DNA of 63,623 nucleotides, counting the filler. It is 9 parts of 9 records of this genome, joined end to end, with 100 filler letters (N's around TTAATTAATTAA, not from the genome) between each part and the next. Parts side by side here need not be neighbours in the genome. Positions count along the whole stretch, not along the records: positions 31,930 to 38,552 come from SRR15195285_637; 8 more parts are not named here. The stretch is one strand, 5' to 3'. The position numbers and the translations under genes are program-made. Under the pieces are notes generated by a model. The model did no database searches. It saw only the letters and a list, made by a program, of their open reading frames with translations, and was not told the DNA's origin. This document shows, piece by piece, positions 19,601-44,973 of the stretch (position 1 is the stretch's first letter; each line of letters starts with the position of its first letter).

Positions 19601-22600
19601 GACTCCTGGTTCTGGGATGAGGGCGTCAAAGCCAAGGTAGGAGACGGCACACCCGCGGAAACAGCACGGCTGGAGAAGATACTTGGGCAGCTCATGACGA
19701 GGACACTCAAAACAGACTTTTCGTCTGCAGAGCTTGGCCGCATGATGAACGATCAGCACGAGGAAAAGATATCGGTCAGATTCTCTCAGCTCGAAAGCTG
19801 CCTATATAAGCATGAGCTTCAACTACTGAAGGAGAAGCGGACGACCATGGAAGCGATCCATATGTGTTGCTCGTATCCGATGCACTGGGGCAAGGCGGAC
19901 AGTCTGGCTGAGATGTGCGAGAAGCAGCACCAGATTGCGATGGACAACCTGCAGATGAGTCAGCACACAGTGCTTGCCAGGATTAATGAGCGCGGAGATC
20001 TCTACAAGTTACTGTTTGATCAGCACACGCACACGCACACGCAGCAACTACTCGACCAGGCGCAAACCGCATACTCGGATGCGCTGTCGTTTGATGTGAC
20101 ACGGCCAGATGTCGATACGCACTACCAAAAGGCTCACGCTGCAGCGTGCTTGGTTCAGATAAGCAATTCACACGGCGATGAGATTGCTCGTTGGGCCAAC
20201 GCGATGATTAATCCAACATTTGAGCTCGCGAAAGCTGCGGTGTCCGTCGTGGAACAAGCATCCACGCAACCAACGGACATCTCGTCCGTTGTCGGAGATG
20301 AAGAGGCGTGCTGGGACATCGTCCAGGACTGGTCCAAATCCAAGACGACGTCAGAGTTTGACAGTGTTAAGCAGCAAGTCCAAGAGGCTGGCTTTGCCCT
20401 GGCGTATTATAAGACTGAGGATCAGGCCACAGGTGATGATAGGTTAACAGGAATCGGCGGTCCCCAGACTACTGATCGTGCGACGAAGTCAGCCACGGCA
20501 GGTTCTGCAGTGACAGACAGTCGAATACCTAAAGGTCAAACGTTGCCAGCAGTCGGGACTGAGCTTCTAGTGGAACTCCCGATCGATGCGCTAACTGGAG
20601 AAGTAACCACAGAGCTTCATCGGTGGGCGTCCAAAAAACGCAAAACCAAGAAGGATAAGGAAATAGAAAAAGATATATGCAAAGAGCTGGAAAAGCTGGA
20701 ACGCATTAAGAAACTTCGAGGTAGACACAAAACGTCGATCGCCACAGTCAGCAAGCACATCGACAAGACGACGTTCATTGTAGAACTGGAGCGCATGCAT
20801 CACCATCAAGATAAGAAGTCACCAACGAAAGTACTGACGCTCGGCGATGCTCGGTTCCAAGTAGTGAAGAGAGGAATCGCCGGGGTGTTGGAAATCCCAG
20901 ACTTGTTTGTACAGCTCAGGGACGAAAGCAATTTTGTGGACCAAACGGATGGTACTAAATTCTTTAAAGCGATGACCCGGAAAGGGCCACAGGATACGGA
21001 TGTGCCAGTAGGTGTGACTAATATGGCGGTGCTGATTGAGAGGCTGCGGCTATTCTTCAAAGAGTGCCGACATTGCCAGCAGAATGCTCGCAAGGAAATA
21101 GCGGCGCTGAGTGCGATGGTGCTGTCGTCTGGAGCTGAACAAAGTATAATATCTCAAACGGCCAAGGACGTTTTTGACGCCAACCAATCAACGAACTTTC
21201 GGCCCAGCATGTGGACAGAGTATGCTACATGTGTTTTCCGTTTTGGCTCGTGCATTTTTCGGGTGGAGAGTCTTTACTTTAACGACATCGAGGACGGTGT
21301 CAATTCTGGACGATGGCGGACTACAGGCAAAGCATTTTGCAATTACACGACACAGATGGAAGCCGTGCTTTGTTGGATTGCTGAGAGGCCACGCCAGTGC
21401 ACGATGATCAAGGACGCGGCAAAGAAATTGGTCTCAGAAATTCACGGCTGGAAAGTAGAGTTTATGGCTCAGCGCTCCGCAGTGATCCAGACTCTGCAGC
21501 ATTTGCACCGGTTGCATTTAAGCTCTCGAGCCAAGGCTGCACCTACCATGCTAGACCGTCATCGCGAAATGATGGAACTCCGGGCCAAAAATGCGCAGCG
21601 CGCCAAGAACCCAATCCTTCGCTACAGTCAGCAGGAATGGGACACGCCACAGTCAGCAGCGGCAGCGGCACCGGCGAACGAGCCCGGGATGCGAGAGCAT
21701 CCACCAGCGTGGCAGTATGAGGTGGGCGGTTCGGAGGGTCAAAGTGGGATCGAGCAGCGGCTGCGCCAAATGATTTCCACAGGCACTATTGCGCTGAAAC
21801 GGGCCAAAGAAGACTGTGCAACTGCCTCCGAGCTCGCGCACAAGCTGCAGGAGCTACAGCAGCCGGTGCAGTGTACCTTCTGCCAAGATCGTATTAACCC
21901 CGGTGCGGTAGCAGTCGTACACCATCTGTACACCATTACCCTTGAAAGTTTAGTACAGCTCGCGCGACATCCGTCGACGTGTGTTCGTAGAAATTCGTTT
22001 CTACTTGTTTTCTCTCTGACAGAATGAATGTGGCTGTGGAATGACCTGCGATTGCTCAGGTGATCTTTGCGCGAGGTTGCCGTGTGGTCACAGCTGTTTT
22101 CACAAGACATGCCCCACGGATCAAGGAAGCAGCAGACAGCAGCAGACAGCTGCCGCCAATATATCTACATGGGTGAGGCAGAATGGAGATTGTCCAATCT
22201 GTCGCAAAACGCTGAGCAGTGGGGCCTGGACCACAGAGGTTTTTGATCAGGTAAAACGCGCATGTCTGAGCTTCTGCTCCTTGCCTCCCAAAGAGCGATT
22301 TTATCTGGTCGATGAAGGTGATTCGTTTGTTGCTCGTCTGCTCAGCGCAAGCATGCGCAGCAGCTGCTGGAGCAGGCAGAGAGGGCTTACAAGCACAAGA
22401 CGGGCGTAAGGGGTTCCGACATCAATGGCGCTAAGATAACTGCCATGCTGGAGGAGATCCTGAAGATCCGTAAAACTGATGCCGCCAGACTGTCCGATAC
22501 TAGTGACGCCAGTAGCGCCACTGGCGCTCAAGAAAATAGACGTGACAGTGCTGATGACCACGAGAGTTCGGATAAGAGCGGTGGTATCGACAGCAGTCGT

Positions 22601-24326: not shown

Positions 24327-24983
24327 ACCCGCTAGCGGCGCCGGCGCCCAGCAACAGCAAGCCACTGCGTGTGTCGCGGCTAGGCCCTAGGCGATGTAGA
24401 ACCGGATATAAAGTGGCACAGGCGGCTAGGTGCTGAGCTAGGCCACACCACACCAACCAACCTCCCGCCGCGGCGCGCTACATGTACGCGATACCTAGCA
24501 CAAACCTGGGTACCTGGTGTACTCTAGAGATCTAGTCTAGTGTGTACACACATGTGTACACGGTACCCACAGGTACGATACCGACGCACGCAGCTGTCGT
24601 GGACGGCCGCGGCGGAGCTGCGTCGGTGTTTATTGGCGGGTGTATGTACACGGCTATACACGCTAGCGCTCGCCGCGCGCCCTGCGCCGTGGCCATTCGA
24701 GCCATGCGACAATGTGATTTTGTGGCCCGCGCGCCGGCGCCCGCGCGGGATACGGATCGGGGACGTGGGGATGCGCATGCGCGGCGCTGGCGGACTCAGG
24801 CTGGGTCGGATTCGCTTGGACCATGGAGAACTCACTAAGAACTACAGTCGACTCCCGCTGACCATCTCGAGTCGCCGCATTTTCCCGAAGATCACTATTG
24901 AAATTACTATAGATATCAGTTGTTGTGACTCCGGCGTTGGCGCTGTCGGGGGCCCTTGCCACTGGCGACGCGCTTGTTCGTGC

Positions 24984-25092
24984 GGTTGTTGGTGTTGTTG
25001 GTGTCGTTGGTGGTGTCGTTGGTGTCGTTGTGGGTGTTGTTGGTGTGGTTGTGGGTGGGTGTTGTTGTCGTTGTGGGTGGGTGGGTGGTTTG
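24984..25092 (+). repeat. Low-complexity (GTT/GGT/GTC)n tract just upstream of ATG 25114
   Basis: Direct reading; it produces spurious Thr/Pro-, Val/Gly- and Cys/Trp-rich ORFs. Confidence 0.85.
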
Positions 25093-25113
25093 GTGGCGAG
25101 CGAGGCTGCTGTG

Positions 25114-27732
25114 ATGCGCAGGGTGTCGTCGCTGCGGCGGCTGGGGCTGCCCTTGGCGCCAAGGATCGGACGCTGCCCGTGCCCGCATCGGCCACTGTCC
25201 AGCGCAGCGGAGCCGGAGGCGCTCGCTGATGCCAATCCGGTGCAGGATCTGGCGCTCAGCAAAGGCAAGATGAAACGCCTCAAAGCGATCGCTGCGCAGA
25301 AAGGCATCGAGTCTGCCGGCGTGAGTCGGCCGGAGCTTGTGCAGCGCATCTTGTCTGCGAATCCAACGGCAGACAGCGCGTCGAACCCACAGGGCGCAGA
25401 CGACCACGACGAACCACAGTCCGAGTCACGCCCTCGCATTGAATACTCCGAGCAGCTGAAGCAGCTGTCGAAAGCCTACCACCAGCTCGTCACAAGGCTG
25501 GTTGCGCAGGACAATGACACGGCCGTGAGCGCAACTCTGACTCGAGCGCGCGCCGCGGGGGTCGAGGACTGGGTGCTGCAGACTGCCTTAGAGCAGCAGC
25601 CGATGCCCGACCTCGACATAGCCGCAGATCCTACCCCACCGGAGGTCCAGGCGCGGCTACAGGCCGCTCGGCAGGAAACCGCGCGGAAGGCCGCAGAGGC
25701 CGAGCAGCGTCAGCAGGATCAGGCTGCCGCTGAGGCAGCACAGCGAAGAGCGCAGCAGGTGGAACAGATCGAGCAAGCGATCGGCAGCGACGAGCGCAGC
25801 GCAGCCGAAGTGCGCGCCGAGTGCCGCGAGCACGGCCTCAGCAGCGCAGCCGCTCGCGACGAGCTACTGCGTCGACTGATGCTGCACCAGATCTGGGCCA
25901 GTGGAGAGCCAGAAGGCAAGCTCCCAGATGACCTCGCCGCTGTTACGCTGGAGCACTATACTGCTGCGCAGCTTAAAACATGGTGCATAGACAACAGGTT
26001 GCCACACACTGGCACCAAAGGCGATCTAATTGATCGGCTCGAGGGGTTCAGCCAGGGCACCGGTGATCATGCTGCCCGTGCGAAGTCGCGCGACATCCAG
26101 ACTGGCGCCGTGAAAAAGTACGCGCCATCTTTCGTGCAACCCCAGCCAACCAAGGTCAGTGACAAACCATTTGTGGAGAAAGCGTGACACCGCCTTTTTG
26201 TGTCGCCATCGTAGGTATGACCTGTGGGCTATGAACCAGTCGGTGAGTCGCGCACCGCTGCCGTCCTCAAGTTGCCTGCTCTATCGTATACAAACAGCGC
26301 ACGCATTGCGCTGAATCGTTTCGGTTTCTGTCTGCCGTGCGATGCGGCGCATACCTGTAGGGCAATCAAAGCACGACGTTCATTGGCATTAAGAGTAACG
26401 TGTGCTACGTTGACCTTGGACCGGGGCACATAGACCGCATGGACTGGGTGAAATCTGCACGCCGAATACTCAACTTGACTCACGACGACCACAGCAGTAC
26501 GTTGGCAGACGCTGCAAATGTGGCGGCACCCAATGATACTGGTATCCCAGACAGCTATGGAGTCGGAGGATACGGCGCGACAGGGTCGGGTTCAGACTTC
26601 TGGGAAGACGGGAACTCGCGACAGCACACCGCTGCGTTCAGTCAGCGAGATCTATCCTTGCCTCGTAGCGTGCATGGTTACTTGGCAAAGGAGACACTGC
26701 CTGGTTCTTTCGGCAGGGAGCAGTTGAGAATGACTTATGATGCTATCGTCGCGTACTTAGTTCCGCAGTCTGATGTGCACACTACTGTCCCGGATCCGAC
26801 GGAAGAAGTGTACGAGAACATGCAACGGGCTGAACGGATGATTCATGTGGCCGAGCGTTCACTGGTCACCAACGGGTCTATACTCATGGCTACAGGGCAA
26901 CTGGAACTGTCACAAGCGTTGGAGCTCGTCGATCGCATGGATCAGTCCTTCTTGGACGTGATGGAACTCAGCCATGGCAACGCTCTAGCGCGTGCGCGCA
27001 AGGTGATGAACGTGCTTACTCAGCGAGCGTACATGAGTATCGATCGGCAACGCGCAAGCCTGGCACCGACGACTCAGCAGCAAAGCCGTGCAGCTGGACC
27101 GGGAGGTGTTGTCAGTGGGACAGTTGGTGACATGGAAGCTCGAAGGCTCGTAAAGCAGTGGTTATCGCCATCGAACCGGGAATTCGCCGCCAGTGTGAGC
27201 AACGCTGCCGCATTTGGCCCGGACGGCCCGAGCCGGTACAGGCAATCCGAGGAACGGACCTGCGAAATGATTTCGCGAGAGCTCAAAAGGAACCGCCTGT
27301 TCGAACCGGACAGGACTGACTTCTACCTACTGCTAGGCAAGAATAAGGTCGAGGCCACCGTTGGTAACCAGCTGAGTGGGCCCGAGACATCTGCCACTAT
27401 GAACGGACAAGTCGATCTCGACTGGCAACTGCGGCTCAACGGTTTCGCGGTGCGTCTGCTGCTATGCCGCGGCGTTTGCTTCCGTGCCTGGTCTGTTTCC
27501 GCCGTGTCTTGCCACCTGCAATATCAGATCATTCTCACAACTGCGTTGCTGCGTGATCTTTCACAACTTTTTGTACTCGTAATGCCCTTCTACATAGGCG
27601 GATCTCGAACGGGAGTCGCATAGCGTTGCCAGCCACGGCCACAGGCTTGAGAAGCAGGCGCACAAGGAGAGTCGCGCACGCTGGGCTAAGCCAGAATATG
27701 TTCGGCTCGGCTCCCCCAACGATACGCCATGA
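25114..27732 (+). CDS. Protein with three SAP-like motifs and an Arg-rich mitochondrial-type presequence; exons 25114..26117, 26215..26242, 26361..27449, 27598..27732
   Basis: MRRVSSLRRLGLPLAPR; motifs RLKAIAAQKGI..RPELVQRI, EVRAECREHGL..RDELLRRL, QLKTWCIDNRLPHTGTKGDLIDRL. Three GT-AG introns restore the frame; the last exon is less certain. Confidence 0.7.
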
Positions 27733-31929: not shown

Positions 31930-32906
31930 CGCGGAAGCGGCGAAGGCGGTCCCGGGTGGGGCGGTTGTACAAGGTTTATTGTCGCCGCTGACGGACAAGA
32001 TTGTCGACGCACTGGTTGATGTTGTAATGTCAATGTCCCCAGTTTAGGGTTTGCTGGCCAAGAACGAGGATCGAGGCATCGACCTGGCTCGACTTTTCGT
32101 GTCGAATGATTGACTCGCCACTCGGCATCGAAGGAGAATACGAGCTGGCCGGCTGCGCTTTGCCTCGCAGACCCCATAATTTTACTGTAAAGTCAAAGAC
32201 CAGCGAAATCATGGCAACGCTACTGTGCAGGGCTTTTCGTAGCGCTTGGGCCGACACAGAACGCGGCCGCAGACATCGTCCGCCAGTCTCTTAGCCTGAG
32301 AGCAATTCCCGCCGTCGAAAGGCTGGACGTTTGGCATCAGCTTGTGCAGCCGTGGCTGCAGCCATAGCAGCAGCGGGGCACTAGCTGTGTGCCGTCAGTG
32401 CTACGGACGCATCAATACGCGCCGCAGCAACGGGCCGGCATCGAGTGGTGGCCTGGCCGGACGAACCGGAACGGGCATCGGGGCACACGCAGCAGCAGTT
32501 GTGTCAGCAATGCAGTGCTGACCGATCGACTGAACGAGATGCGGGACCACGTGCAACGTTCAAGCATCGCAGTAGACGGCACGGCCGTAGAGCTGATGTT
32601 CTAAATCTCCCAGTCAATCATTCAGCAAGCGCGGGTTGCAAAGGGGAGCTTGGAGCGAGAACAAGTGTACACGGGGCGATCTAGTGCGAATTAATCAGTG
32701 GTGATGACACGCCATTCCAGCACAATGTTACAATTCGAATACGCCGCTGTAACACCCCACTTGAAGAAGGACAGACTGTGCCTTCTGTTCCCCTGGAAAA
32801 TTTGTCCAAGTACGGACAAAAGATGCCTTGTCTCTCCGCATCGAACCATTCACATGCACCCGCCGTAACGAAAACCTGCATGTGCTCAGTAGCGAAGACC
32901 TGCTCC

Positions 32907-33752
32907 TCACAAGTCCATGTCCTCGTTTGCATCTTTCTGCCTGCGAAGTATATATGCGATTGCGCCGAAACCGCTGTTTTCTGCCACCTCGTAAGGTCGC
33001 AGGCCCTGCACCCACCAACACTTAAATTGATCGCAGCAAGCGCCAACAAGCAATCGCCTAAAATGTGAGCGGTGGAACCATTGGCTTACACTCAACGGAT
33101 TCGGCGTGTCGAAACTTTCATACAGGTTGTTTTCGACTAATAGCTGCACCACTCCAAGGTGCCCATACTGTGCTGCCAAATGCATCGGTGTGGCTCCATC
33201 TGCAATACAAGTTTCGTGCACGCCTCAGCAGGCTAATTTTACAGCGAGTAGACATCTTCGTGGTCGCACCACCAGTGTCGCGTTTGTGTACAACGAGCGA
33301 TCGAGCCGTTGGAGCAATCGGAGCTTACGATCATTCACAGCCTCAATGCTTGCGCCCTTCTCCAACAGCACACGCCCGAGGCCAACTTGACCATTTGCTG
33401 CCGACCAGTGTAGCGCCGTGTTGCCATCCTCGTCCCTTGCGTCCACACTCGCACCACTAGCTGAGATAGTTCACAGCATGGTGTCACTGGGAGTACCAAT
33501 CAGCACGATCACTCGCCAGTGGTTAAAAGAAGTGCGTTGCGTACCTAGTAGCTGTCGAATGGCAGCGATGCTCTCGTGTTCTGACGCCGATCTCGCCAGC
33601 TGCACTACGCTCGAGCCGCCGGTCCGCTGCAGTTCTTCGGAAGACACTGGCCTCATGCAAGCAAGAACTGCAGCGACAGCGACAAGGCATGTCGCGCGGT
33701 CTGCTGAGAACTGCTGTTGTGGAACCCTAGACTGCGCGGTGGAAGCTCCCAT
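32907..33752 (-). CDS. Small ankyrin-repeat protein; exons 33752..33545, 33460..33329, 33199..33090, 33005..32907
   Basis: GASVDARDEDGNTALHWSAANG, HGATPMHLAAQYGHLGVVQLLVE; three GT-AG introns in compatible phases. Confidence 0.85.
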
Positions 33753-34539
33753 CGTCTACCGCAATTCGCGCTGGGGATCACGTCTCGCGCGGCAAGGGCC
33801 CGCGCGCCGCATCTGACTCGAGTCGTGAAAAGGATCCTACTACAGCCCGGCACCGGCCGCGCACGCAAGCATCACGCGCCTGCAGCCCGGCACGGGCACC
33901 GGCCGCGCACGCAAGCACCACGCGCGTGGGCGCGTGCAACCGTGCATCAGTGCGGATTCCTACGACTACGCTAGGATCCTATAAATAGTGTACACGTCCT
34001 GAACGATGGATCAACTCGCCGACCATTGATCCTCAGTTTTGACCGCGCGTCATCACTCATCAGCATGCAACGAACACGCAGGGTTGCATGATATTACCGG
34101 TACCCCTGGCTCATGGCTGACCCAGCCCCTGACGTTGACAACCCAGCTGAGTTTCCCCTCCTTCCCTTGGTCTGAGCGACGGCGGTGCTGCTGCTGCTGC
34201 TGCTGCTGGCCGTGGGAGCAGATACTCATACAGCGTGCGGTAGGCAGGAGGGGGCAGGGCAGGGCAGGCGGTAGATACACTCATACAGCCAGATCTGCTC
34301 AGGTGGGCAGGGCAGGGCAGTGTGTGCCTGGGACGGACGGACCTGTGCGCGAACTGCTGCTCAACGTCGACGTGAGCTCTGCCTGCGCTGTTCCGATCGA
34401 TCCCCGCGACAAGAAGCACGTCAAGGCAGCGGACGAGTAGCTAGCCCTGCCACATCGTTTGCCCCAGCGCCCAAGAAGCTGGTGCTTCCCGACTCCTGAA
34501 CACTCCATGTGACCAGTTTCGACGGCTGACGGCTGACGG

Positions 34540-37500
34540 TTGACGGCTGATGGCGGCGAGGCACGGGCGAACGTGCGCGGTGGCAAGCGCGCGGCAGCCA
34601 TCAGGCTGGTGCTGACGTCGATGTATGCGGTGGGCGGCGCGCTGGCTGCGCCGGAATCCACATCAACGACCTCGACCGCACGCGAGAACGCTGCCGCCAC
34701 TGTCGCCTTGCTGGGCGTGCTGAGCCCGATCACCGGATGGGGCACGGAGGTCCACTCTCCTGCGAGGCCTCAAGGCAGAGCTCTGGAGCCGCGCGTCGAC
34801 GCGTTCGGCCCGACTGCTGCCTGGCTAGAAACCGATGCCACTGCTCGAGCGGAGGATGGACGCGCTGGCACGCGCACGGATCTCCAGCGAGGTCGCTCGG
34901 GCATGGTGACACCGACCGAGCACAAAGACTCGTCGCTGGAGGTTGCCGTCCTGGAGCTGCGCACGATCGAGCCGGGGCCCAGCGTGCCGCAAGACAGAGA
35001 GCCTTGGCGCACAGTGCCGACCGGCGCGCGGGCAAGAGACGCCGAGCGCCTCGCGGCAGACCACAGCCTGTTCCTTGCGACGCCACTGTCAGAAGAAGCG
35101 CCCAGGCCGGCCCCGGTCAAGCGTGGGACCCAGGCGGTGGAGGACAAGTGGCAGGCTATGGTGAAGTGGGAGAAGGAGAAGTACGACCGGCGTGAGAAGC
35201 AAAAGGCAGCAGAAGATGCGAAGAAAGTGGAAGCGGAAGAAGCGGTAGTGCAGAAAAGCCGCAAACGTATTCAGCCACAGCGGCAAGGAGACCTCTACAC
35301 AAGGCTGGCAACGACCGACCGGCGAGGCAAGCCTCTGAAGCGAGGCTCGACGGCAACGAGGACTACCCCGTACGAACAGTCAATGAGACGTGGTCGCGAC
35401 AGCAGCACTGGCACCTGCGTCGCAAGGAGGCGGGATGCGTCCATAAGCAAAGCAAAGAGTAGTGCTGCCAGCCCGACGACTAGCAGAGCTAGTACGGACA
35501 ACCCAGCGGGTACCACCGAGACGCCATCAGTTGTGGCCAGGCTGTGCGACACTCGCGAGTACACGGGTGCGCATAAAATGCGTTTCGATGCGTCCGGCAG
35601 GGGCCGCGGAATCCGTGGCAGAAGAGATTCCATCGCACCAGTGCACGACATGGCCGCCTACACACGCAGAGGCCCACTGGCCGCTGAACAAGGGCAGCTG
35701 TGTGGTAACTTGAGCCTGACTGCGGCCGATGCTTCAATCTCGATTCTGGAGGGTGATCCACCGTCTCCAGAATCGAGATTGAAGCACAAATTTCGAGGGC
35801 TGTCGTACACAACGATGGGTCAGGATCCAAAGCTGCTTCTCAGATCGTTCGATAAGGACCGATCGGGCGAAATAGACATTCAGGAGTTCATCTCTGCTGC
35901 GCGCAGAGGCGCCGGCATGACACGGGAGCAGATGCCAGACGTAGAGCTGCGGCAACTCTTCCGAGCTGTTGATTCGGACGCTAGTGGGAGTATCAGCATA
36001 GATGAGCTGGTCACTTTTGTCTGGGGTAGAGAGGGATCGGTTTCCCTAAGTGTTTCACAGGCGGATGCCTCCTCCAAGCAGAAGCGGCTGCCTGGACGAG
36101 AACAGCCAAACGCGACTTGTCCAGAGCGATCCGATGCGTCGATCACTACAGGTACCAGCGCTACAGCAGCTTTGCCTGTTTTTCAAATGGATACTGTGGT
36201 CCAGGAGCTGAAAGCTCAGCAACAGCAGTCACAGCTCGCAGTCGTTGTAGACAATGAAAGCGATTCCGAGTCGGAGGAGGGCTCGGGTGGTGGGCAGCTC
36301 GCATGCCCGCTTGCTGACCAGGCATTGGATGAGCTGCAATCGGAGATGGATGCTCGATTCGACAACTTATTGGCAGCAGTCACGTCGATACCCGACGCGA
36401 CTTCAGGAACTGTCGAGACCGAGACAGCGCCAGAGACAGCAACAGGCGATGCTAAGCTCGACAACTTATTGGCAACAGTCAGTTCGATACCAAATGCAGC
36501 AATGGATGCGGTAGTGAAAACAGATCCACAGCACGAGCGGGAACTAGAGGTTGAGCTGGACGATGGCCAGGAGCAAGGGCTCCAGCCAGAGCCAGAACCA
36601 CAGCCCGAACCGAACCCACGCGTGTGCACGAGCAGTGAAGACCGTTCCCATACCGAGATTCAGCGCAAGCATGTTGCGCTAGAGTTTCTATCAACAGAGA
36701 CAACATACAGGGATGGGCTGCAGTGCCTGAAAGTAGAATGGATGGATCAATTGCGGTTCAAGAGTTCACAAGCGGTGAAGTCGACATCGAGTCAGATGGA
36801 CCAGTTGCAAGGTCAAGCTCGCAAGCAGAAGCGGGCGTCAATGCGACGAATGTCACGGGGAGGTGGCGGAAGCAACGCTAGCGCCGCAGCTGCCGCGACG
36901 ACGGCGGCCATGGGATTTCCTGATACACAAGACGTCGACAAGCTGTTTAGCAATGTGGAGTCGTTGCTTGTGCTGAGCGAACAGTTGTTGAGTACGCTGC
37001 AAGAGAGGATTGGGGAAAATCCTCCCGGTTCACAGTGGACGCCGAAGCAGAAAATCGGAGATATTTTTGTGACGCTCGGTCCGTACTTTACGTCAAGTTA
37101 CAAAGAGTACGTGGCGAACTTCGACAACGCAACTGCCCATGTAGCTACGATGCAGGCCACGTACCCTCTGTTTGCAACCACTCTTGATCAGCTGCGAGAA
37201 GTGCAGGGAGGTCTAGATCTGGCCAGCTATATGGTGATGCCAGTCCAACGCCTTCCACGCTACAGGATGCTGCTCGAGGAACTGATCGCGAAGACGTCGC
37301 CAGATCATGATGACTACACTGACCTTACAGCCGCACTCGAGATCATTAAGGATGTGACAACTGCTGTCAACGAAGCTGCGAGGGAAGACCGCAGCGCTGA
37401 GACAGAAGCGGAGACGTTGCGCCGCGAGCTGGCGAAATTACAGCTTCGCAACAGTCACAGCGACAATGACACTAAACGCAGCACCATAAGCGGCCACAAT

Positions 37501-37755
37501 GGCGTAGCGGACAGCAGCCAGCTCACACTGTTGCAGAAAGAGAAAGAGGATGCAGAAACTCAACGTCTGATAGCAGAGCAAATGAACGCTAAGCTTGCAC
37601 AGGCATTAGCTGCGAAGGATGCAGAGCTCAAGGCCGTTCGAGACAGCGCAGCAGCATTGACCGCAACCACACATATGGCTGCGACAGGCGTGGGAGAGAT
37701 CGGACATAATCTAGACGCTTTGTACGCCGAGCATCAGGTGCCGACAGAGAAATAG
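34540..37755 (+). CDS. Partial p25alpha (TPPP) motif + EF-hand pair + RhoGEF DH domain + coiled coil; true start probably upstream (possible exons from ATG 34113 and around 34303-34437)
   Basis: RLCDTREYTGAHKMRFDASGRGRGIRGR; EF loops DKDRSGEIDIQE and DSDASGSISIDE; DH motifs RKHVALEFLSTETTY, LFSNVESL, IGDIF, YMVMPVQRLPRYRMLLEEL, VNE. Confidence 0.85.
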   Translation: MTADGGEARANVRGGKRAAAIRLVLTSMYAVGGALAAPESTSTTSTARENAAATVALLGVLSPITGWGTEVHSPARPQGRALEPRVDAFGPTAAWLETDATARAEDGRAGTRTDLQRGRSGMVTPTEHKDSSLEVAVLELRTIEPGPSVPQDREPWRTVPTGARARDAERLAADHSLFLATPLSEEAPRPAPVKRGTQAVEDKWQAMVKWEKEKYDRREKQKAAEDAKKVEAEEAVVQKSRKRIQPQRQGDLYTRLATTDRRGKPLKRGSTATRTTPYEQSMRRGRDSSTGTCVARRRDASISKAKSSAASPTTSRASTDNPAGTTETPSVVARLCDTREYTGAHKMRFDASGRGRGIRGRRDSIAPVHDMAAYTRRGPLAAEQGQLCGNLSLTAADASISILEGDPPSPESRLKHKFRGLSYTTMGQDPKLLLRSFDKDRSGEIDIQEFISAARRGAGMTREQMPDVELRQLFRAVDSDASGSISIDELVTFVWGREGSVSLSVSQADASSKQKRLPGREQPNATCPERSDASITTGTSATAALPVFQMDTVVQELKAQQQQSQLAVVVDNESDSESEEGSGGGQLACPLADQALDELQSEMDARFDNLLAAVTSIPDATSGTVETETAPETATGDAKLDNLLATVSSIPNAAMDAVVKTDPQHERELEVELDDGQEQGLQPEPEPQPEPNPRVCTSSEDRSHTEIQRKHVALEFLSTETTYRDGLQCLKVEWMDQLRFKSSQAVKSTSSQMDQLQGQARKQKRASMRRMSRGGGGSNASAAAAATTAAMGFPDTQDVDKLFSNVESLLVLSEQLLSTLQERIGENPPGSQWTPKQKIGDIFVTLGPYFTSSYKEYVANFDNATAHVATMQATYPLFATTLDQLREVQGGLDLASYMVMPVQRLPRYRMLLEELIAKTSPDHDDYTDLTAALEIIKDVTTAVNEAAREDRSAETEAETLRRELAKLQLRNSHSDNDTKRSTISGHNGVADSSQLTLLQKEKEDAETQRLIAEQMNAKLAQALAAKDAELKAVRDSAAALTATTHMAATGVGEIGHNLDALYAEHQVPTEK

Positions 37756-38552
37756 ATTAGAAGATGGGCACCAGGCGACACGCTTGTTCCAACGGAGGGA
37801 GTGGTACGTTGAAGCTCAACTCGGTGGTGGGTGAGACTTGTGGGCCAGTCTCGTGTGACTACGACGGCACTGGTGGTTAGTGCATAGAGACCACTGAGAC
37901 GACCGCTGATGCCCATTAAGGCGCGTTTGAATGTTAAGGCGGGTGCCAGTATTCAAAATTCCCACTCGGCGTGGCGTTCTTGACTCGTTTCGCTCATTCG
38001 GCACACGCTTGGTGTCGGTCATTTTTTTTCTCTGGCCGCCGTCGCCAACCACTTCCTCAACTAGATGATTCAGCGTGGATAATGCCACAAGTACTCCCAA
38101 CACGGTAGCTTGGTGTTGTGTCAATCGATAGACTTGGCGCCCCCCAACGTTGCAAAGAACGTTGCTTTAATGACACTGCGCGCGCCACGCGACTCCGTTG
38201 TATTCAAACGGAGTCGCGTGGCGGCCGGAATCGCCCGACCCTTGATCAAATGCCACGAGCACATTCTCTGCGCCACGGACACATTGCCAGAACATTACGG
38301 AGAAGTACAGGGCCGCAACTGTGGCCCTGACTTACACCTAAATTGATGCGTGCGCTTTAGGATGTAGTTGTGGCCAGCGCAAATGACGAATGAAATCTGA
38401 CCATAGGCACGCAATGAACTCTGTAGAAATACCGATATACCGGGAAGGCGGGGGGGATGGGAGGGAGCGGGGGCGACAGTATGGTCCTAATGGCATCCAC
38501 GTATGCAGACACCCCGGTGGACAGTTCTTCTAGGGAAGAGGCGCCTCTTCCC

Positions 38553-39100: not shown

Positions 39101-42100
39101 CTAGACTGCGACGTTGTCGTCGGCTCCGTAAGTGTGGACACACTCGTGCACTACAGCGAGCTGTGTCTTGAGGTCGGTCTGAGCCGTCTCAAGCACACCT
39201 AGGCGCAAGCCCACCTCCGAAAGCATCGACTTAATGTCTCGCACGGCCTTATCCAACTCGGCATCTTCCTGAGTCTGTTCCTGCTGGCGGAAGCAACGTC
39301 CTTTTGGTAGCCATGCAACCGAGCCGTGTAGAATCTCTTCGTACACAAATGCCTCAATGGGCGTTAAGTTAGACTTTGATCGACTATGGAGATAAACCAG
39401 CAAGAACGCGTACTGTACGTGGCTTGTGCTCTTCTCAGGCATCACTTCGCTAAACGTGATACCAGTTATGAAGCATGTGTTCGAGCGGTAAGCTACTGCT
39501 TCGTCCTGTTGCGTACGAAGCTCACCGAAGGTGTCACAAATGATACCGGTTATGATCGCGATGATGATGCACGAGGTCATAAGCATGAAGGTAACCTCCC
39601 ACAAAATGCGGCCTGTTTTCTCGTCTCCGAGTTCCGCAAAATCTTGAGGAATTGTCACCAGCTCAAGCCATTGTCCCAGTCCCTCTTGTGTCAGACCGAC
39701 CATCGAATAGCTGACAAAGCAACTCAGAAGGTTATCACATGGACCGTTATCGTTTAGGGTCCGATCGGATGTATGATCTCCTTGGAAGACTATCACTCCC
39801 AGGATCGCGAAGTAGTACATCAATAGCAAGGCGAGCAGCAGCGTTGTTGCAATACGAGCCATATTGTACCAAATGGACTGCAACACAATATTCGCGCCCG
39901 CAATATTCTTCACGCGATACAGGTGCCAGCTTAAGCACAGGGGGGACGTGAGGAAACCAGTCACTGAGAACACAATATCGAAGACCGCCTCCCAGAATTG
40001 CTTGTTGTAGCGAAGGAGATACATTGATTGTAGCGGAACTTTTCGTCCCATGGGTCCCAACAGATTGAGGATCGCTTGTAGATTCGTTACTAATATGTAG
40101 CCAGCGGAACTCTCTGCTGTGGAAGAGACCTCGTACTCTAGCTCGTCGACAAGTCGTGCCAAATAGCTGCCGGTAGAGTGAATGTAGTCATCGTCCACCT
40201 CTCGAATTTGAATCTTCATCTCTTTTGAGTGCTTGTGGCGCATCATGACGAACTGATCGTCGGGGTCACGACGGTGGCCATCTACAATGACGTTGTTGTT
40301 TTGCTCGCACTCCTTCAGTATTGTCTGTTTGGCACTGGTATTGGTGAAATTGAGGATCACCCAGCTATTCACCGCACCGGGGACTTTGACAACTTGGACT
40401 CCCGCAACCACACCGTAATGTGAAAACAACTTGGTGATAGTCAATTTATCGGCGATGGTTTCTGGAAATCCGTACGCATGTATGGTATGCTTGAGGAAGT
40501 CCTGGTGATCAGAATCGTGGCGACCTTCGCCACTTAAATGTAGTGTACGTTGTTCACGTCCGCGAGCTTTTAGCATCACAGGTACTCGCACGGCACTGAA
40601 GTGATAGAACGCAAGGAGACAAACGAACAGGTGCACCGTGGACAGAAACTGGTATAGCGCCCACATTTCTGGAAAGCTGTCATCGAACACAAGGTTATTC
40701 CAGCGCAAGTATGTCTCTTTGCTCAAACTCTTACCATTTGATACGGGGTCCCCTTGTCCCGAAGGTACATAGGAGATGATGCATACGACGCTGGTAAGGA
40801 AGCTGAAGTACAGCACTGCGTCTCCAGAAGAGAAATTGGTTATCCAATGGTGCAGCCTAATAAACTTGTCCTCCTCGACCTTGAGATCCTGCATGATGAG
40901 ATTGACAATATCCATGCACCCATCGACGAAGTCACGAAGCTTGTCGTCATCGTTCTCGCGTGATGCGCCATCCATAACACGCAGTATATCTTTCTCAAGA
41001 TCCCGTCGTTTGTCGACGTCCATGTAAATATCCGGCATCCAAAAGAAAATGCGTTGAAGAATCCCGTCCGGCCCAACGACTTCTACCTCTCCAAGACGCG
41101 CATGGAAATACTCAAGGGTCTTGGGGTCGGAAATCAATGGCTTGCGCGTGTCCTGCGAACCATAGCGATTGCCCTTACCTTCTTCTTCACGCAGCAAAGC
41201 TTGAACCCCATACGTTGTCTTGTCCACGACTGTCATGAGCTTGAAAGCATCGCCTGATATCCACGCAGCAGTGCGATCCTCCAGTGGAACACGATTGTCT
41301 TCGCGCTGTTCGAATTCCTCATCAAATTCAATGGATCCGTTTTCCATTACTCGTCGTAAAATTTTCAACTGGTTACCCCAGGCGGTCCAGTTCAAACCAC
41401 GGCATACAGTATTCATCACATGGGCTGGAGGCTCACCGTCGATCAATGTGACCAAGAGTCGGCTGATCTGGGCAATCAATTTGCGTTTCGGGCTATGTGT
41501 TCCAGATTTTAATATGTCGCGATGGTTGTATTGACAGTAGGATAACATGCGATTGATGATCGAAATGATCTCGGTATTGCAGATAGCCGACTGAGCGTCT
41601 CGGTTGGGGCCACTGCACACAGCAATCAAGATTCTTAGGCCAGCGTAGCACTGCTCCAGCACTGCTGCAATCGGCTCTTCGAAATTGTCGTCTAGCCCCC
41701 ACTGTTCCACGTACACCTTGGTATCCCGCTCAGCTTGATTGAGGTAGGCCACAACATCAGCCACCAGGTTCAGGTCTCGTAGGTGACCTGGCTGACGTAG
41801 GATATAGCATTGCATCCCTTTGTGGCTGCCTAAGCACATATTCATCATTAGTGTGAGTGTTTCTGTAGCGTAGCCACTCTCGTTCACAGTGATTGACGAA
41901 TCAAGCTTGACGTTCTGCTCCTCCGCCTTCTCCTTTTCTGCTCTCAGCTTCCGATGCAACTTGAGGTCTTTTACACTAGCGCGCAATAGACGCCGGAGAG
42001 CCCCGGCACAAATCTCTGTTTCGCTCGATTCCATCTGGGAAAGCAGAGAGTTTTGCACGTCAACGTTCCCTAAGCGTAGCCCTCCCCCAGTCATCGCGAG

Positions 42101-44872
42101 CAGCAACCGAAGCGCGCAGAGATGTAACGCGGCAAATGTCTCGTTGTCCAATATCCGAAAGCACAACATCCCCCATCCTTGATCAATCATGGATATCTGC
42201 ACCCTCGCGACATCGGGGTTTGATGTGCAGTCCAACGGGGCTGCTTTGATGAAAGCATAAAAGCAATGTGGTGACGTGTCCATGCTGTCCGATGACTCAT
42301 AATGCTCAGACATCGCGTATGGAATACCCCGAGCAGCATCCAGCATCGCGAGCAGCTTGGGTACACTACTGAGGTCAGACGTCTTCAACATTCTGTCTAA
42401 TTCATAATTCAGTGGTACAAGCAAGCAACTCGCGTAGTGGATTGGTTCCCTGCTCTGCTCTCCGATTCCATCATGCGGAACGAATTGCCACAGTGCTTTT
42501 GACACGCGCATAAGACCTTGTCCGACAACTCTGTTCGTTTTTGTGATAAAGCGGATGTCCATGGTTTTAATGAGTGTTCTGACAATGGACGACCACGACT
42601 CGTTGCCTGGTGACAGTCTCTCTTTTGACTGCTCTGGGGCTGTGAGCTTTCGTAGGTGGTGAATCGGCTGGCTCTGTGGCCAGAGTTGTGTAATCTGTTG
42701 CAACTGTTCGAGAGCGTTGCGTTCCTGCTCAGTCCAAAACTGATTGGAGCCGTTCAATGCCGCACGCATCAGGGTGCCCAAGTCTGCGAACGCGTTCTGC
42801 ACAACACTGACGTCTTCGCGTGCGACATCTTTGAACGGCATCACCTCCGCAAACTGAATGAAGAACAAGATAGCCTGTTCAAAAATATACCGTCTATCAT
42901 TCGCGGAGATTATGCACTCTCCACGCGAGTTTGCACTAGAACGGAGGTCACGCATGTCTTCAATTATGCTCAACGCAATTGGTTTGGCAAATGGTGCGTG
43001 GGTTTTCTCATCACAGGACCAGACGCCATTGAAGGGACGCTGTAGAGCCTTCAGAATGTGCGTAGAGTTGGTATCAACGAAGACGTCCCTGAAGAAGCAA
43101 ACCGTGCAATTTTTGATGCCAGTAATGTCTTCTTCGGTTCGTTGCAAGTCTGGGTGGTCATAAATCTCGTGAAGCCGCGTAACGACCACGCTGAAAGGCA
43201 ATATTGACGCACACAGCAGCTCTGTTGTGGGATTTTTCCCACTGGCACACTGTGCAAGGATAATTAACGATGAAGCGTAGTACTTAGCTTCGCATGTGCA
43301 TCGCCGGCACAGGTCTCGTTCTTCAGCATCCGCTGTCCCATCATCGTAGTTGAATATCGTCGCCAGCATACCAACCCGGTCGCGTCCAGGACCAACTCCC
43401 CATTCATCTTCATCAAGTTGAGCGGATACCTCTAACATGTCTTTCGACATCATTGCACCCTTACAGACCTGAATCTGCATCTCCACAAGAGGCTTTCCGT
43501 CAACGAATAAAAGCTTTTCAAGCAGGTTCATCAAGCTGAGTTTTCGCCCGAATGCCTTCGACAGACCTGCTACGGCATCCACAAGCTGTTCGCCGAGCAT
43601 GAGCGATAGCGGCTTGTTGTCTGTCACAATGCTGCGGACGCAGTGCGCTGCCGCATCGGTGTAGTTTTCATCCCATAGCAGCCTCTTGAAGATACTATCC
43701 ATGTGAGTAGCCATCAGCATTTGATTCTCGTCATTGCCGTCGCAAAACTTCTCAACAAGAATGAGCGTCTTTCTCATCAACGTCTGGAATATCGGCGTGC
43801 CCAGTCGCATAAGCAGCACGCGAGAGGCGTACTCTTCAAAGTTGAGGTCACGGAGCAGGTTTTGTCCAGCCAAGGTAGTGCAATGCCTAGCAAGTTCACC
43901 CTCAACAAGTGCAATACACTGCGTGCAGTCGTCTTCCCTGTGCAGCCACTTCCGCAGCCGTCGGAACTCTGACATAGCTTCGTATGCCTCGAAAAATGTT
44001 ATGGCTTCTTCCGGAGTACACAGCACGGTCACATCACGCAGCACTTTTGAGAAAGCATAGTTCTGAGAAAGATAGCTGATCAGCGTTTCGAACCCTTTGA
44101 ACCCGAGATCAGGGTCCACAGTGTACTGCAGGACGTCCACGAGAATGTGCGTCATCTCTTCGTCATATTGTGCTGGGAACACGCGGATGCTCTTAATTTT
44201 CGCCAGCGCTAACTCAGCCATCTTGTCCATGTTTCGATCCCTTGATTTAGGTGACATGGTGTCCCAGCTGCCGTCGACTCCATGTTTTCTGACGGTCTTA
44301 CTCTTCTTGTCATTCGTCGAGGCCAACTCTGAATCGAACGTGCTGGCGGGGTTAGTAGCATCACTTGTGGGATCGTGCGATTCATCCATGGACAGAGGAT
44401 TCGAAAACCTGACACCACCGTCGTCAGGAGATGTCTTGGTGGGACTGGTGTCAAAAGACTGCGGCGTGGTTGAACTAGCACGAGGAGTCACAGGGACTGC
44501 GTCTGCATAAAAATTCTTGAGAAGCTCAGCTACCCGTGTGCTAGCACGCATAGCAAAGAGCGTATTGATGACCTCAAGGATGCGCCTTTTCATGAACATC
44601 ACCGTCGAGTTCTCGTGACTGAGGACGAATCTATTTACGCTGGGATTTCCGATGTCGTCTTTCCTGCCGTCCAGCAATGGCAGTAGCGCCGTACCAAGTG
44701 ATTTTCCTTCTTCGCCTAACAACAGGACACCGTCGCTGTGTTTGTCCAGATGAAATGAATTATCGTACACTCCGCACAGTAGTAGTTGCTGCACCAAGTC
44801 GAGAATTGCACACAAAAATTGGTTTGCAGCAATTTGCATCCTGTCAATGTTTCCTTCTGTTCCCTTCAGCAC
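39101..44872 (-). CDS. IP3-receptor/ryanodine-receptor-like Ca2+ channel, 5'-truncated
   Basis: RIH-like FCDGNDENQMLM; RIH-associated MCLGSHKGMQCYILRQ and CSGPNRDAQ; GEVEVV..GILQRIFF..P; TM segments; CDNLLSCF; IITGIICDTFGELR; NTCFI. Confidence 0.88.
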   Translation of the reverse strand: MLKGTEGNIDRMQIAANQFLCAILDLVQQLLLCGVYDNSFHLDKHSDGVLLLGEEGKSLGTALLPLLDGRKDDIGNPSVNRFVLSHENSTVMFMKRRILEVINTLFAMRASTRVAELLKNFYADAVPVTPRASSTTPQSFDTSPTKTSPDDGGVRFSNPLSMDESHDPTSDATNPASTFDSELASTNDKKSKTVRKHGVDGSWDTMSPKSRDRNMDKMAELALAKIKSIRVFPAQYDEEMTHILVDVLQYTVDPDLGFKGFETLISYLSQNYAFSKVLRDVTVLCTPEEAITFFEAYEAMSEFRRLRKWLHREDDCTQCIALVEGELARHCTTLAGQNLLRDLNFEEYASRVLLMRLGTPIFQTLMRKTLILVEKFCDGNDENQMLMATHMDSIFKRLLWDENYTDAAAHCVRSIVTDNKPLSLMLGEQLVDAVAGLSKAFGRKLSLMNLLEKLLFVDGKPLVEMQIQVCKGAMMSKDMLEVSAQLDEDEWGVGPGRDRVGMLATIFNYDDGTADAEERDLCRRCTCEAKYYASSLIILAQCASGKNPTTELLCASILPFSVVVTRLHEIYDHPDLQRTEEDITGIKNCTVCFFRDVFVDTNSTHILKALQRPFNGVWSCDEKTHAPFAKPIALSIIEDMRDLRSSANSRGECIISANDRRYIFEQAILFFIQFAEVMPFKDVAREDVSVVQNAFADLGTLMRAALNGSNQFWTEQERNALEQLQQITQLWPQSQPIHHLRKLTAPEQSKERLSPGNESWSSIVRTLIKTMDIRFITKTNRVVGQGLMRVSKALWQFVPHDGIGEQSREPIHYASCLLVPLNYELDRMLKTSDLSSVPKLLAMLDAARGIPYAMSEHYESSDSMDTSPHCFYAFIKAAPLDCTSNPDVARVQISMIDQGWGMLCFRILDNETFAALHLCALRLLLAMTGGGLRLGNVDVQNSLLSQMESSETEICAGALRRLLRASVKDLKLHRKLRAEKEKAEEQNVKLDSSITVNESGYATETLTLMMNMCLGSHKGMQCYILRQPGHLRDLNLVADVVAYLNQAERDTKVYVEQWGLDDNFEEPIAAVLEQCYAGLRILIAVCSGPNRDAQSAICNTEIISIINRMLSYCQYNHRDILKSGTHSPKRKLIAQISRLLVTLIDGEPPAHVMNTVCRGLNWTAWGNQLKILRRVMENGSIEFDEEFEQREDNRVPLEDRTAAWISGDAFKLMTVVDKTTYGVQALLREEEGKGNRYGSQDTRKPLISDPKTLEYFHARLGEVEVVGPDGILQRIFFWMPDIYMDVDKRRDLEKDILRVMDGASRENDDDKLRDFVDGCMDIVNLIMQDLKVEEDKFIRLHHWITNFSSGDAVLYFSFLTSVVCIISYVPSGQGDPVSNGKSLSKETYLRWNNLVFDDSFPEMWALYQFLSTVHLFVCLLAFYHFSAVRVPVMLKARGREQRTLHLSGEGRHDSDHQDFLKHTIHAYGFPETIADKLTITKLFSHYGVVAGVQVVKVPGAVNSWVILNFTNTSAKQTILKECEQNNNVIVDGHRRDPDDQFVMMRHKHSKEMKIQIREVDDDYIHSTGSYLARLVDELEYEVSSTAESSAGYILVTNLQAILNLLGPMGRKVPLQSMYLLRYNKQFWEAVFDIVFSVTGFLTSPLCLSWHLYRVKNIAGANIVLQSIWYNMARIATTLLLALLLMYYFAILGVIVFQGDHTSDRTLNDNGPCDNLLSCFVSYSMVGLTQEGLGQWLELVTIPQDFAELGDEKTGRILWEVTFMLMTSCIIIAIITGIICDTFGELRTQQDEAVAYRSNTCFITGITFSEVMPEKSTSHVQYAFLLVYLHSRSKSNLTPIEAFVYEEILHGSVAWLPKGRCFRQQEQTQEDAELDKAVRDIKSMLSEVGLRLGVLETAQTDLKTQLAVVHECVHTYGADDNVAV

Positions 44873-44873
44873 A

Positions 44874-44973
44874 NNNNNNNNNNNNNNNNNNNNNNNNNNN
44901 NNNNNNNNNNNNNNNNNTTAATTAATTAANNNNNNNNNNNNNNNNNNNNNNNNNNNNNNNNNNNNNNNNNNNN
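44874..44973. other. Artificial contig linker 6
   Basis: N44-TTAATTAATTAA-N44. Confidence 0.98.

Follow-up and report, generated by a model that had tools for sequence, protein, structure and literature searches.

Can a single protein combine a tubulin-associated motif, a pair of EF-hands and a Rho guanine-nucleotide exchange domain, and what might such a protein do in the cell? The question is raised by a locus in record SRR15195285_637, which occupies positions 31,930 to 38,552 of the window, the whole stretch of 63,623 nucleotides analyzed here (parts of nine records of one genome joined end to end by 100-letter fillers). A sequence-only reading of this DNA had placed a p25-alpha motif, two EF loops and a Dbl-homology (DH) domain in one frame. 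All of them are indeed inside a single open reading frame (ORF), 34537-37755 on the plus strand, and are supported by Pfam. The features of the locus are collected in Table 1, and residues are numbered from the Met encoded at 34621.

A conserved single-exon gene

The stop-to-stop ORF is unbroken over 1072 codons in both the ORF list and the translation. The ATG at 34621 is the probable start codon because the models of the relatives P0002, P0003 and P0172 open at the same Met. Within the coding sequence 13 of the 18 population variants are synonymous, and the frame is thus under purifying selection. Near-identical DNA is present in at least 19 metagenome runs (marine, seawater and other) from 16 studies. 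Three RNA libraries contributed contigs on the frame with no joints seen; these contigs are 153-375 bases long, DNA is possible in such libraries, and the full frame is never spanned by one of them. The RNA-library contig X15 corresponds to 35476-35750 with zero differences, and a contig from an oligo-dT library covers 37128-37363. In run X13 the depth was zero in two bins upstream of 34542 where the DNA run X1 was covered; a contig gap proves nothing, so no transcript start was called.

The architecture is shared by several relatives. The orthologue P0172, a full-length protein of 1023 amino acids from a separate assembly, has the segment order and the C-terminus of the window protein and is 84-88% identical to it over the parts compared (86% in the N-terminal half, 84% in the tail). 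P0002 (71% identical) and P0003 (65%) keep the p25-alpha motif, the EF-hands and the DH domain and have a second EF pair. The more distant P0160 group, represented by models of 695 amino acids, carries two p25-alpha copies and an EF pair. Because a full-length orthologue from a separate assembly has the same architecture, the three-domain fusion is real and conserved, and is neither an assembly nor a gene-model artefact.

A chimeric assembly, or two adjoining genes read through as one, is for these reasons an extremely improbable source of the fusion. The window does derive from environmental DNA, and the gene models of P0002 and P0003 are imperfect, both breaking inside the DH domain. However, the long window frame contains no stop, P0172 is collinear from the first residue to the last, and the linkers are conserved as well as the domains. 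In addition, a DNA contig of 1728 bases from run X1, which is possibly the window's own source, runs across the motif and the EF pair and through the greater part of the DH domain.

The neighbouring myosin was compared for a taxonomic placement of the host: its close relatives (54-100% identity) are all environmental proteins, and its named matches are at most 40% identical. Only two records among the family-level relatives bear a name, both of them from EukProt and labelled Picozoa sp. COSAG01 and COSAG02; they are a DH fragment (56% identical by cluster representative) and an EF-module protein. An affinity of the host with Picozoa is no more than a lead, because co-assembled single-cell genomes can be contaminated.

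Table 1. Features of the locus, in window positions, with the evidence for each
Feature	Position	Strand	Evidence
Complete intronless coding sequence, 1044 codons and stop (probable start)	34621..37755	+	ORF list, translation, start of relatives
Conserved N-terminal region, no assigned function, mostly predicted disordered	34621..35490	+	Blocks shared with relatives; AlphaFold2
Confidently predicted charged helix, residues 169-213	35125-35259	+	AlphaFold2 pLDDT 84-94
Partial p25-alpha (TPPP C-terminal) motif and conserved extension	35500..35670	+	Pfam PF05517, phmmer against PDB
EF-hand pair, residues 407-466 by Pfam	35839..36018	+	Pfam EF-hand_1, _5, _6, _7
Ca2+-loop consensus, two 12-residue loops	35851-35886; 35971-36006	+	Loop pattern search
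Acidic low-complexity linker with a conserved unit repeated twice	36046..36585	+	Composition, motif positions
[ST]x[IL]P tetrapeptides, one closing each linker unit	36382-36393; 36481-36492	+	Motif search
Dbl-homology (DH, RhoGEF) domain	36634..37395	+	Pfam PF00621, AlphaFold2, Foldseek
Family-specific insert between DH helix 1 and the rest, about 65 residues, approximate limits	36727..36924	+	Alignment, pLDDT
Conserved RRxS site within the DH insert	36844-36855	+	Present in 15 of 16 family sequences
C-terminal helical tail (predicted): last DH helix continued, then a long helix	37396..37752	+	AlphaFold2
Long helix of the tail (predicted), residues 965-1022	37513-37686	+	AlphaFold2 pLDDT 87-93

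Domains of the predicted protein

The N-terminal region has conserved blocks in common with P0172, P0002, P0003 and the more distant P0160 group (segment phmmer E 2e-25). At E up to 1 Pfam assigns it to no family. Modelled by AlphaFold2, residues 1-520 have a mean pLDDT of 45.7, which is too low for a fold search, and the ESM Atlas returned no usable match for either the whole protein or residues 1-295.

The p25-alpha motif follows this region. Pfam PF05517 matches residues 294-343 (profile 94-147 of 153, E 3.7e-9, 37.4 bits against a cut-off of 22.6), and the motif coordinates given by the sequence-only reading, 35530-35628, are in frame as residues 304-336. The motif is of the partial p25alpha type found in TPPP and apicortin, as had been proposed, but its opening was cited as RLTD-x2-YTG; the window reads RLCD, and RLTD is found in the P0160 group. 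In phmmer searches of the PDB the motif segment matched TPPP3 (2jrf, E 2.7e-10), TPPP (9j4f, E 9.3e-8) and TgDCX (9y9z, E 5.7e-6), and on these sequence matches we regard it as homologous to the C-terminal motif of TPPP and to the partial P25-alpha of Toxoplasma TgDCX. Within the clade it hardly varies, and the P0160 group has two copies of it; in the AlphaFold2 model the region has a low confidence (pLDDT 31-48). As in the partial-p25alpha subgroup of the TPPP-like superfamily, the PF05517 match is C-terminal only and includes the GxGxGxxGR signature (35596-35622, residues 326-334). A strict TPPP, whether of the long or the short type, has a complete or short p25-alpha domain and nothing else. 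The window protein falls outside that group: its match is confined to the final third of the profile, the first two thirds of the domain are missing, and it has additional domains. Nor is it an apicortin, which would have a DCX domain, since Pfam finds no DCX family at E up to 1.

The binding experiment considered here for an isolated partial P25-alpha was made on TgDCX. According to the available text of Leung et al. 2020 (PMC7048138), a construct of the partial P25-alpha and linker (TgDCX16-134) binds microtubules weakly in Xenopus cells and leaves a large unbound pool, and a tandem dual-P25-alpha construct binds them efficiently. The same text describes TgDCX orthologues with a well conserved partial P25-alpha and DCX whose microtubule association is highly variable and in some cases absent.

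The EF-hand pair is well supported (EF-hand_1 E 1.5e-10, EF-hand_7 E 2.2e-8), and, like the other Pfam matches in this protein, its scores exceed the family cut-offs. Both canonical loops noted in the sequence-only reading fit the pattern, with D/D/S at positions 1/3/5 and E at position 12, which is the consensus predicted to bind Ca2+. The paired 12-residue loops with oxygen ligands at positions 1, 3, 5 and 12 are those of EF-hands by sequence, and the loop residues are invariant across 9 aligned relatives. The region is modelled by AlphaFold2 as four to five helices at low confidence. The linker that follows is acidic (D+E 0.18, K+R 0.06). An EB1-type reading of its [ST]x[IL]P tetrapeptides was rejected, as two copies are not above chance (shuffle mean 0.99, P 0.27) and the context is acidic.

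By profile and modelled fold, the DH domain is classified as a member of the Dbl-family RhoGEFs. Pfam PF00621 matches residues 768-917 (profile 34-180 of 180, E 7.7e-39, 134.2 bits against a cut-off of 27.6), and in P0172 the match covers the complete profile, 1-180 of 180. The AlphaFold2 model of residues 644-1044 has a mean pLDDT of 83.2, exceeds 90 over most of the DH domain, and is all-helical with no strand. A Foldseek search returned 114 PDB chains at E up to 0.001; the best 33 of these 114 are all Dbl-family DH or DH/PH structures, and P-Rex1:Rac1, intersectin:Cdc42 and FGD6 are the best matches. In a query-anchored phmmer alignment, the window protein has the consensus residue at 52 of the 66 columns conserved in 83 other DH proteins, including the QRxPRY-LL block (CR3) and the Asn-Glu of the last DH helix. 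The changes at the remaining 14 columns are mostly conservative (L/I, M/L, V/I). The Glu of helix 1 (CR1) was placed by eye because this helix aligns with the solved DH domains of FGD6 and FARP2 only at insignificant scores (1.5-2.6 bits). We take this Glu, the CR3 block and the last-helix Asn to be the positions at which DH domains contact the GTPase.

The insert after helix 1 occupies columns that are filled in less than half of the 83 other DH proteins, and its pLDDT is 51-61 over model residues 91-120. The RRxS site within it suggests an additional control by a basophilic kinase. The sequence-only reading had the DH domain followed by a coiled coil with no PH domain. A PH domain is indeed absent by Pfam at E up to 1, as are strands from the model of residues 644-1044, and long helices do follow the DH domain, but they are all beyond 37390, where the feature had been said to end. 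DH domains without a PH domain are known and accepted in the Dbl family (PMC5499878, available text). The helical tail is conserved in P0011, P0172 and P0033. A homodimer prediction for it (residues 930-1044, two copies) scored 0.13 against a mark of 0.32, a value that says nothing either way.

Precedents for the fusion

The claim that no p25alpha-DH fusion is known has held up. Outside the small clade described here the combination was found in none of 1.84 billion representative proteins and at none of 19 metagenome loci, and there is no mention of it in the literature searched; the supplementary tables of Fort and Blangy 2017 (all Dbl architectures of 175 genomes) or of the Orosz papers may list one. 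The 19 loci are those confirmed out of 337 pattern matches in a scan of JGI metagenomes with N-terminal alignment. None is a close orthologue, a DH domain was found at 0 of the 19 in the DNA examined around each, and an EF module is beside the motif at only one (L001).

The fusion is not of a wholly new kind because proteins that join p25-alpha to EF-hands or to Sec7 (an Arf GEF) have already been catalogued (Orosz 2012, 2023) and because protists as a rule reshuffle the domains that surround DH (Fort and Blangy 2017, PMC5499878), as far as the available text of these sources goes. The combination of p25-alpha and DH, described nowhere in the literature searched, fits the domain-shuffling habit of Dbl GEFs. 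In the accessible Orosz accounts, the p25-alpha proteins with EF-hands from green algae, Chromera, Vitrella and Polarella have the EF-hand pairing in common with the window protein, and the Symbiodinium p25-alpha proteins with Sec7 and cyclase domains have a small-GTPase exchange domain in common with it (Sec7, for Arf). However, these multidomain proteins contain one to three short-type p25-alpha domains instead of the partial motif, and Sec7 instead of DH. Partial-p25-alpha proteins in the Orosz classification, such as apicortin/TgDCX, are alike in the C-terminal 30-50 residues, in GxGxGxxGR and the stretch after it, and apicortin likewise joins the partial p25-alpha to a second functional domain. 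The partners in the window protein, an EF pair and a DH domain, are absent from the published Orosz tables and text that are accessible.

The DH domain is alike in sequence to those of the Dbl RhoGEFs FGD6 (9jb3), Entamoeba FP10 (8zlf), FARP2, P-Rex1 and intersectin (E 4e-15 to 1e-9). The folds are alike too: Foldseek gives a probability of 1.00, and the TM on target is 0.85 with FGD6 and 0.82 with FP10. The CR3 block and the last-helix Asn are conserved. In contrast to them the window protein lacks PH, FYVE, FERM, SH3 and EH domains, its insert after helix 1 is specific to the family, and those proteins have neither the p25-alpha motif nor the EF pair; identity is 16-25%.

A possible link between microtubules, Ca2+ and Rac

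The locus is a genuine single-exon gene that looks expressed and belongs to an uncultured marine picoeukaryote. Our preferred explanation is that it encodes a Dbl-family Rho/Rac guanine-nucleotide exchange factor with a disordered arm for targeting and regulation, and we place at roughly 0.5 the probability of this explanation as a whole, with the mechanism proposed below. The long and mostly disordered N-terminal arm, made up of the conserved region, the motif and the EF pair, would target and regulate the DH domain. The basic p25-alpha motif may provide a low-affinity attachment to microtubules or to a different tubulin polymer, for instance in flagellar roots or in cortical arrays, and the EF-hand pair would sense Ca2+. 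Together they would set the place and time at which the DH domain loads GTP onto a Rac-like GTPase, and the microtubule cytoskeleton and Ca2+ signals would thereby be coupled to actin remodelling. Microtubule binding, Ca2+ dependence, exchange activity and substrate are all properties that we infer from the sequence, and the description of the protein as a Ca2+-sensitive, microtubule-anchored Rho/Rac activator in the sequence-only reading is likewise a prediction.

Parallels exist among animal exchange factors. GEF-H1 (ARHGEF2) is dependent on microtubules. RasGRP (CalDAG-GEF) depends on Ca2+ through built-in EF-hands and acts on Ras/Rap via its Cdc25 domain, and Ras-GRF is another of the microtubule-linked or Ca2+-linked factors. 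The mechanism is alike in principle only, with no homology to the window protein beyond DH and with other targeting modules. A tentative proposal, possible but well short of even odds, is that one lineage of uncultured marine picoeukaryotes recruited a TPPP-type partial p25-alpha to target a signalling enzyme. The protein would then act as a Ca2+-gated relay stationed on microtubules or flagellar roots, from where it would activate a Rac-like GTPase. As the first p25-alpha-DH fusion, it would provide a microtubule-to-actin coupling invented independently of animal GEF-H1.

The same domain evidence would serve a mechanism of the opposite sign, in which, as in mammalian GEF-H1, the factor is inactive while bound to microtubules (here through the p25-alpha motif) and is freed and activated by Ca2+ at the EF-hands, by phosphorylation of RRxS or by microtubule disassembly. 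The RRxS site in the DH insert (15 of 16 sequences) and the C-terminal helices are reminiscent of regulatory features of GEF-H1. However, the sequence carries no indication of the sign of regulation, Pfam finds no C1 or PH domain of the GEF-H1 type, and a single partial P25-alpha, which binds weakly (PMC7048138, available text), would make a poor device for sequestration unless the protein oligomerises; we consider this mechanism unlikely. It is rather doubtful, too, that the motif binds no microtubules and is a conserved basic linear motif for another partner (soluble tubulin, a basal-body or axonemal component, or a nucleotide), in which case the protein would be a RhoGEF under Ca2+ or kinase control whose location is set by the remaining conserved N-terminal blocks. 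The widely differing and sometimes absent microtubule association of TgDCX orthologues (PMC7048138, available text) would agree with this, as would the presence of the C-terminal third of p25-alpha alone (profile 94-147 of 153) and of several conserved blocks, shared with the P0160 group, in the N-terminal 290 residues. Yet the near-invariance of the motif in the clade and its duplication in the P0160 group are in line with the stronger microtubule binding of two copies described in the available text of PMC7048138, and the characterised carriers in the accessible parts of the cited literature are all binders of tubulin polymers.

It is very unlikely that the DH domain is a pseudo-GEF, a scaffold whose catalytic function has been lost through the insert that follows helix 1. 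An insert of about 65 residues is absent from most DH domains, 14 of the 66 conserved columns are off consensus, and there is no PH domain. Against this, most of the off-consensus changes are conservative and the QRxPRY-LL block and the last-helix Asn-Glu are retained. In the model the DH fold is preserved and the insert forms an extension and a loop, the frame is under purifying selection, and DH without PH has precedent (PMC5499878, available text).

The weight of the finding is tempered by the fact that DH shuffling is common and that EF-hands and an Arf GEF have each been recorded before as fusion partners of p25-alpha, and the function is predicted from sequence and model. If the function is as proposed, the protein would represent a way for microtubules and Ca2+ to direct Rho/Rac signalling outside the animals. 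The DH domain would be a catalytic partner added to the domains that travel with the p25-alpha motif, and the role of the motif would be widened from a structural stabiliser of microtubules to a targeting tag. The gene also gives access to the cell biology of a marine protist that is abundant but uncultured.

Domain architecture of the fusion protein

The sequence-only reading placed a p25-alpha motif, EF-hands and a RhoGEF (DH) domain together in one frame. Pfam confirms the p25-alpha, the EF-hand pair and the DH domain in a single frame, far beyond chance, and a position check found the motif to be in frame as located by that reading. The ATG at 34621 is the probable start, since three relatives have gene models that open with the same residues; residue numbers count from its Met.

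Features of the fusion gene and other genes in the window
Feature	Position	Strand	Remarks
Open frame, stop to stop	34537-37755	+	1072 codons
Coding sequence from probable start ATG	34621-37755	+	1044 codons
p25-alpha (partial)	residues 294-343	+	Pfam E 3.7e-9, above curated cut-off
GxGxGxxGR	35596-35622	+	
EF-hand pair	residues 407-466	+	Pfam, above curated cut-offs
Two loops fitting Ca2+-ligand pattern	35851-35886, 35971-36006	+	pattern match
Two [ST]x[IL]P tetrapeptides	36382-36393, 36481-36492		acidic linker; each closes a unit of a twice-repeated conserved element
RhoGEF/DH	residues 768-917	+	Pfam E 7.7e-39, above curated cut-off
RRxS, basophilic-kinase consensus	36844-36855	+	inside DH insert
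Ca2+ release channel, IP3-receptor/ryanodine-receptor-like	39101-44917	-	1938 codons; RIH, RIH_assoc, Ion_trans domains
Myosin motor, IQ motif, C-terminal BTB_2	5218-8295	-	domain search
Protein with EF-hand pair, 1148 aa	10893-14339	+	long single-exon frame
SNF2 ATPase, N-terminal SAM domain	16625-22027	+	long single-exon frame
SAP-domain protein	24913-26187	+	long single-exon frame
PATROL1-like TPR protein	50303-53380	+	long single-exon frame

Residues 1-290 are conserved yet match no Pfam family, and are modelled by AlphaFold2 as disordered except for a confident charged helix at 169-213. The motif segment that follows aligns with human TPPP3 (2jrf, E 2.7e-10), TPPP (9j4f, E 9.3e-8) and residues 69-103 of Toxoplasma TgDCX (9y9z, E 5.7e-6), and these alignments show homology of the TPPP-type motif to the partial P25-alpha of TgDCX. 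The domain match assigns the protein, within the TPPP-like proteins, to the 'partial p25alpha' subgroup. Strict-sense TPPP was rejected as its identity, the Pfam match being limited to profile positions 94-147 of 153, and apicortin was also rejected. A second RRxS lies immediately after GxGxGxxGR (35620-35631).

Judged by their ligand pattern, the EF loops are canonical. The EF-hand pair is part of a separate, widespread module whose flanks are conserved; large unnamed proteins among P0014-P0159 carry up to about eight copies of it. An acidic linker comes next, with two [ST]x[IL]P tetrapeptides, a pattern typical of EB1-binding SxIP signals. Their count in the linker is not above chance (P 0.27, shuffle control) and their context is acidic. 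Both are retained in the orthologue P0172 and the second in the relatives P0002 and P0003; the first is kept in P0002, not in P0003.

Sequence and structural model place the protein in the Dbl family. Behind helix 1 the DH domain is broken by an insert that is specific to this family and absent from most DH domains. Of 16 family sequences, which represent about six 90%-identity clusters, 15 carry the RRxS of this insert, among them the DH fragment filed in EukProt as Picozoa sp. COSAG01; the remaining one lacks coverage there. Residues 644-1044 are modelled as helices only (AlphaFold2, 40-row alignment; mean pLDDT 83.2), and the best Foldseek matches are P-Rex1:Rac1, intersectin:Cdc42, FGD6 (TM 0.85 on target) and an Entamoeba DH domain. 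The solved DH domains closest to it by sequence and Foldseek matches have Rac or Cdc42 as substrates. For comparison, 83 further DH proteins were taken from the representative search, 14 members of the window protein's own family being left out. At 52 of 66 conserved columns (same residue in at least half of the 83) the window protein agrees with the consensus; the fractions are approximate because some proteins gave two rows. The matches include the CR3 block and the last-helix Asn-Glu, and the 14 differing columns are mostly conservative; helix 1 aligns with FGD6 and FARP2 only at insignificant scores. Model and alignment show the predicted fold intact and most of the consensus positions kept. 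No PH domain was found by Pfam or in the AlphaFold2 model, and the tail is modelled as one long helix (residues 965-1022, pLDDT 87-93).

Conservation, RNA-library contigs and neighbourhood of the gene

The fusion is real. P0172 (1023 aa), from a separate assembly, has counterparts to the window protein's six segments, all in the same order, and the same C-terminal end; in it Pfam finds p25-alpha, EF-hands and RhoGEF, the last along the full profile (1-180 of 180). Identity is 86% in the first half and 84% in the tail. P0002 (71% identical) and P0003 (65%) have the same architecture except for an additional EF-hand pair inserted behind the first; module numbers vary within the clade. The gene models of both break at a single point within DH, probably owing to an intron that is absent from the window genome. 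The more distant P0160 and eight cluster members are 41-43% identical and have N-terminal blocks in common with the window protein, together with two p25-alpha copies and an EF pair; their protein models of 643-696 aa (five near-full-length members) stop before any DH domain.

The gene is conserved and under selection. Four sequencing runs gave 21 listed differences; leaving out three outside the coding sequence, 13 of 18 are synonymous. Contigs from three RNA libraries match the frame with no joint anywhere, including a contig over 35476-35750 with zero differences and another, of oligo-dT origin, over 37128-37363. The contigs are short and the libraries may contain DNA, so they fit unspliced transcription and leave one mRNA unproven.

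The window looks eukaryotic, with a G+C of 50-63% and numerous long frames without introns, several of which, beyond those in the table, match no Pfam family. The Ca2+ release channel frame converges with the EF-hand RhoGEF gene at the latter's 3' end and has a run of N at its own upstream end; this adjacency is probably a coincidence, the host being a eukaryote. The myosin shares its unusual tail with the close unnamed relatives P0181 and P0183 and also with P0182, which lacks the IQ motif. Its identity to named myosins does not exceed 40%.

Distribution and precedents of the combination

A complete HMMER search across 1.84 billion representative proteins yielded 7520 matches at E up to 0.001. 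Segments were tested one by one in 159 proteins, the best 150 of the 7520 plus earlier ones, a set from which a distant fusion with a total score below the best 150 could be missed. The DH part alone was matched in 81 and the EF part alone in 64. Five had only p25-alpha, in three or four partial-motif copies each, a known type; p25-alpha with EF occurred once (P0058), and six short fragments matched other segments, one or two each. Among the 159, p25-alpha was joined to DH only in P0002, P0003 and the window protein. A word-based search for the motif region yielded three proteins from 22 candidates, P0160, P0002 and P0003, and no DH domain was present in the retrieved DNA at any of 19 motif loci in JGI metagenome contigs. 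Across these searches p25-alpha with DH is restricted to one small clade of an uncultured marine eukaryote.

The combination appears to be unreported. Literature searches over the main text of papers gave no description of a p25alpha/TPPP-like protein with a RhoGEF or other GEF. The catalogue of partial and multidomain p25-alpha proteins by Orosz 2012 (PMC3498115) includes EF-hand, WD40, B-box/IQ and PH among the partner domains, and its main text names no DH or GEF. Two short p25-alpha domains are described with EF-hands in Chromera, Vitrella and Polarella, and with Sec7 and cyclase domains in Symbiodinium (Orosz 2023, PMC10304595). Fort and Blangy 2017 (PMC5499878) stress heterogeneous domain reshuffling of Dbl GEFs across 175 genomes, and neither 'p25' nor 'EF-hand' appears in the main text. 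Fusions of this sort are known from both parent families, among them pairings of p25-alpha with EF-hands or an Arf GEF.

Possible function

In Xenopus cells, TgDCX16-134, a construct of partial P25-alpha and linker, is reported to bind microtubules while a large part of it stays unbound, and a tandem dual-P25-alpha construct to bind efficiently (Leung et al. 2020, PMC7048138). The Ca2+-sensitive, microtubule-anchored Rho/Rac activator proposed in the sequence-only reading is plausible but unproven. The p25-alpha-type motif would provide low-affinity attachment to a tubulin polymer, the EF pair would make place or activity Ca2+-dependent, the DH domain would activate a Rac-like GTPase, and the RRxS site could add kinase control. 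The effect may have either sign, microtubule binding activating the enzyme or sequestering it.
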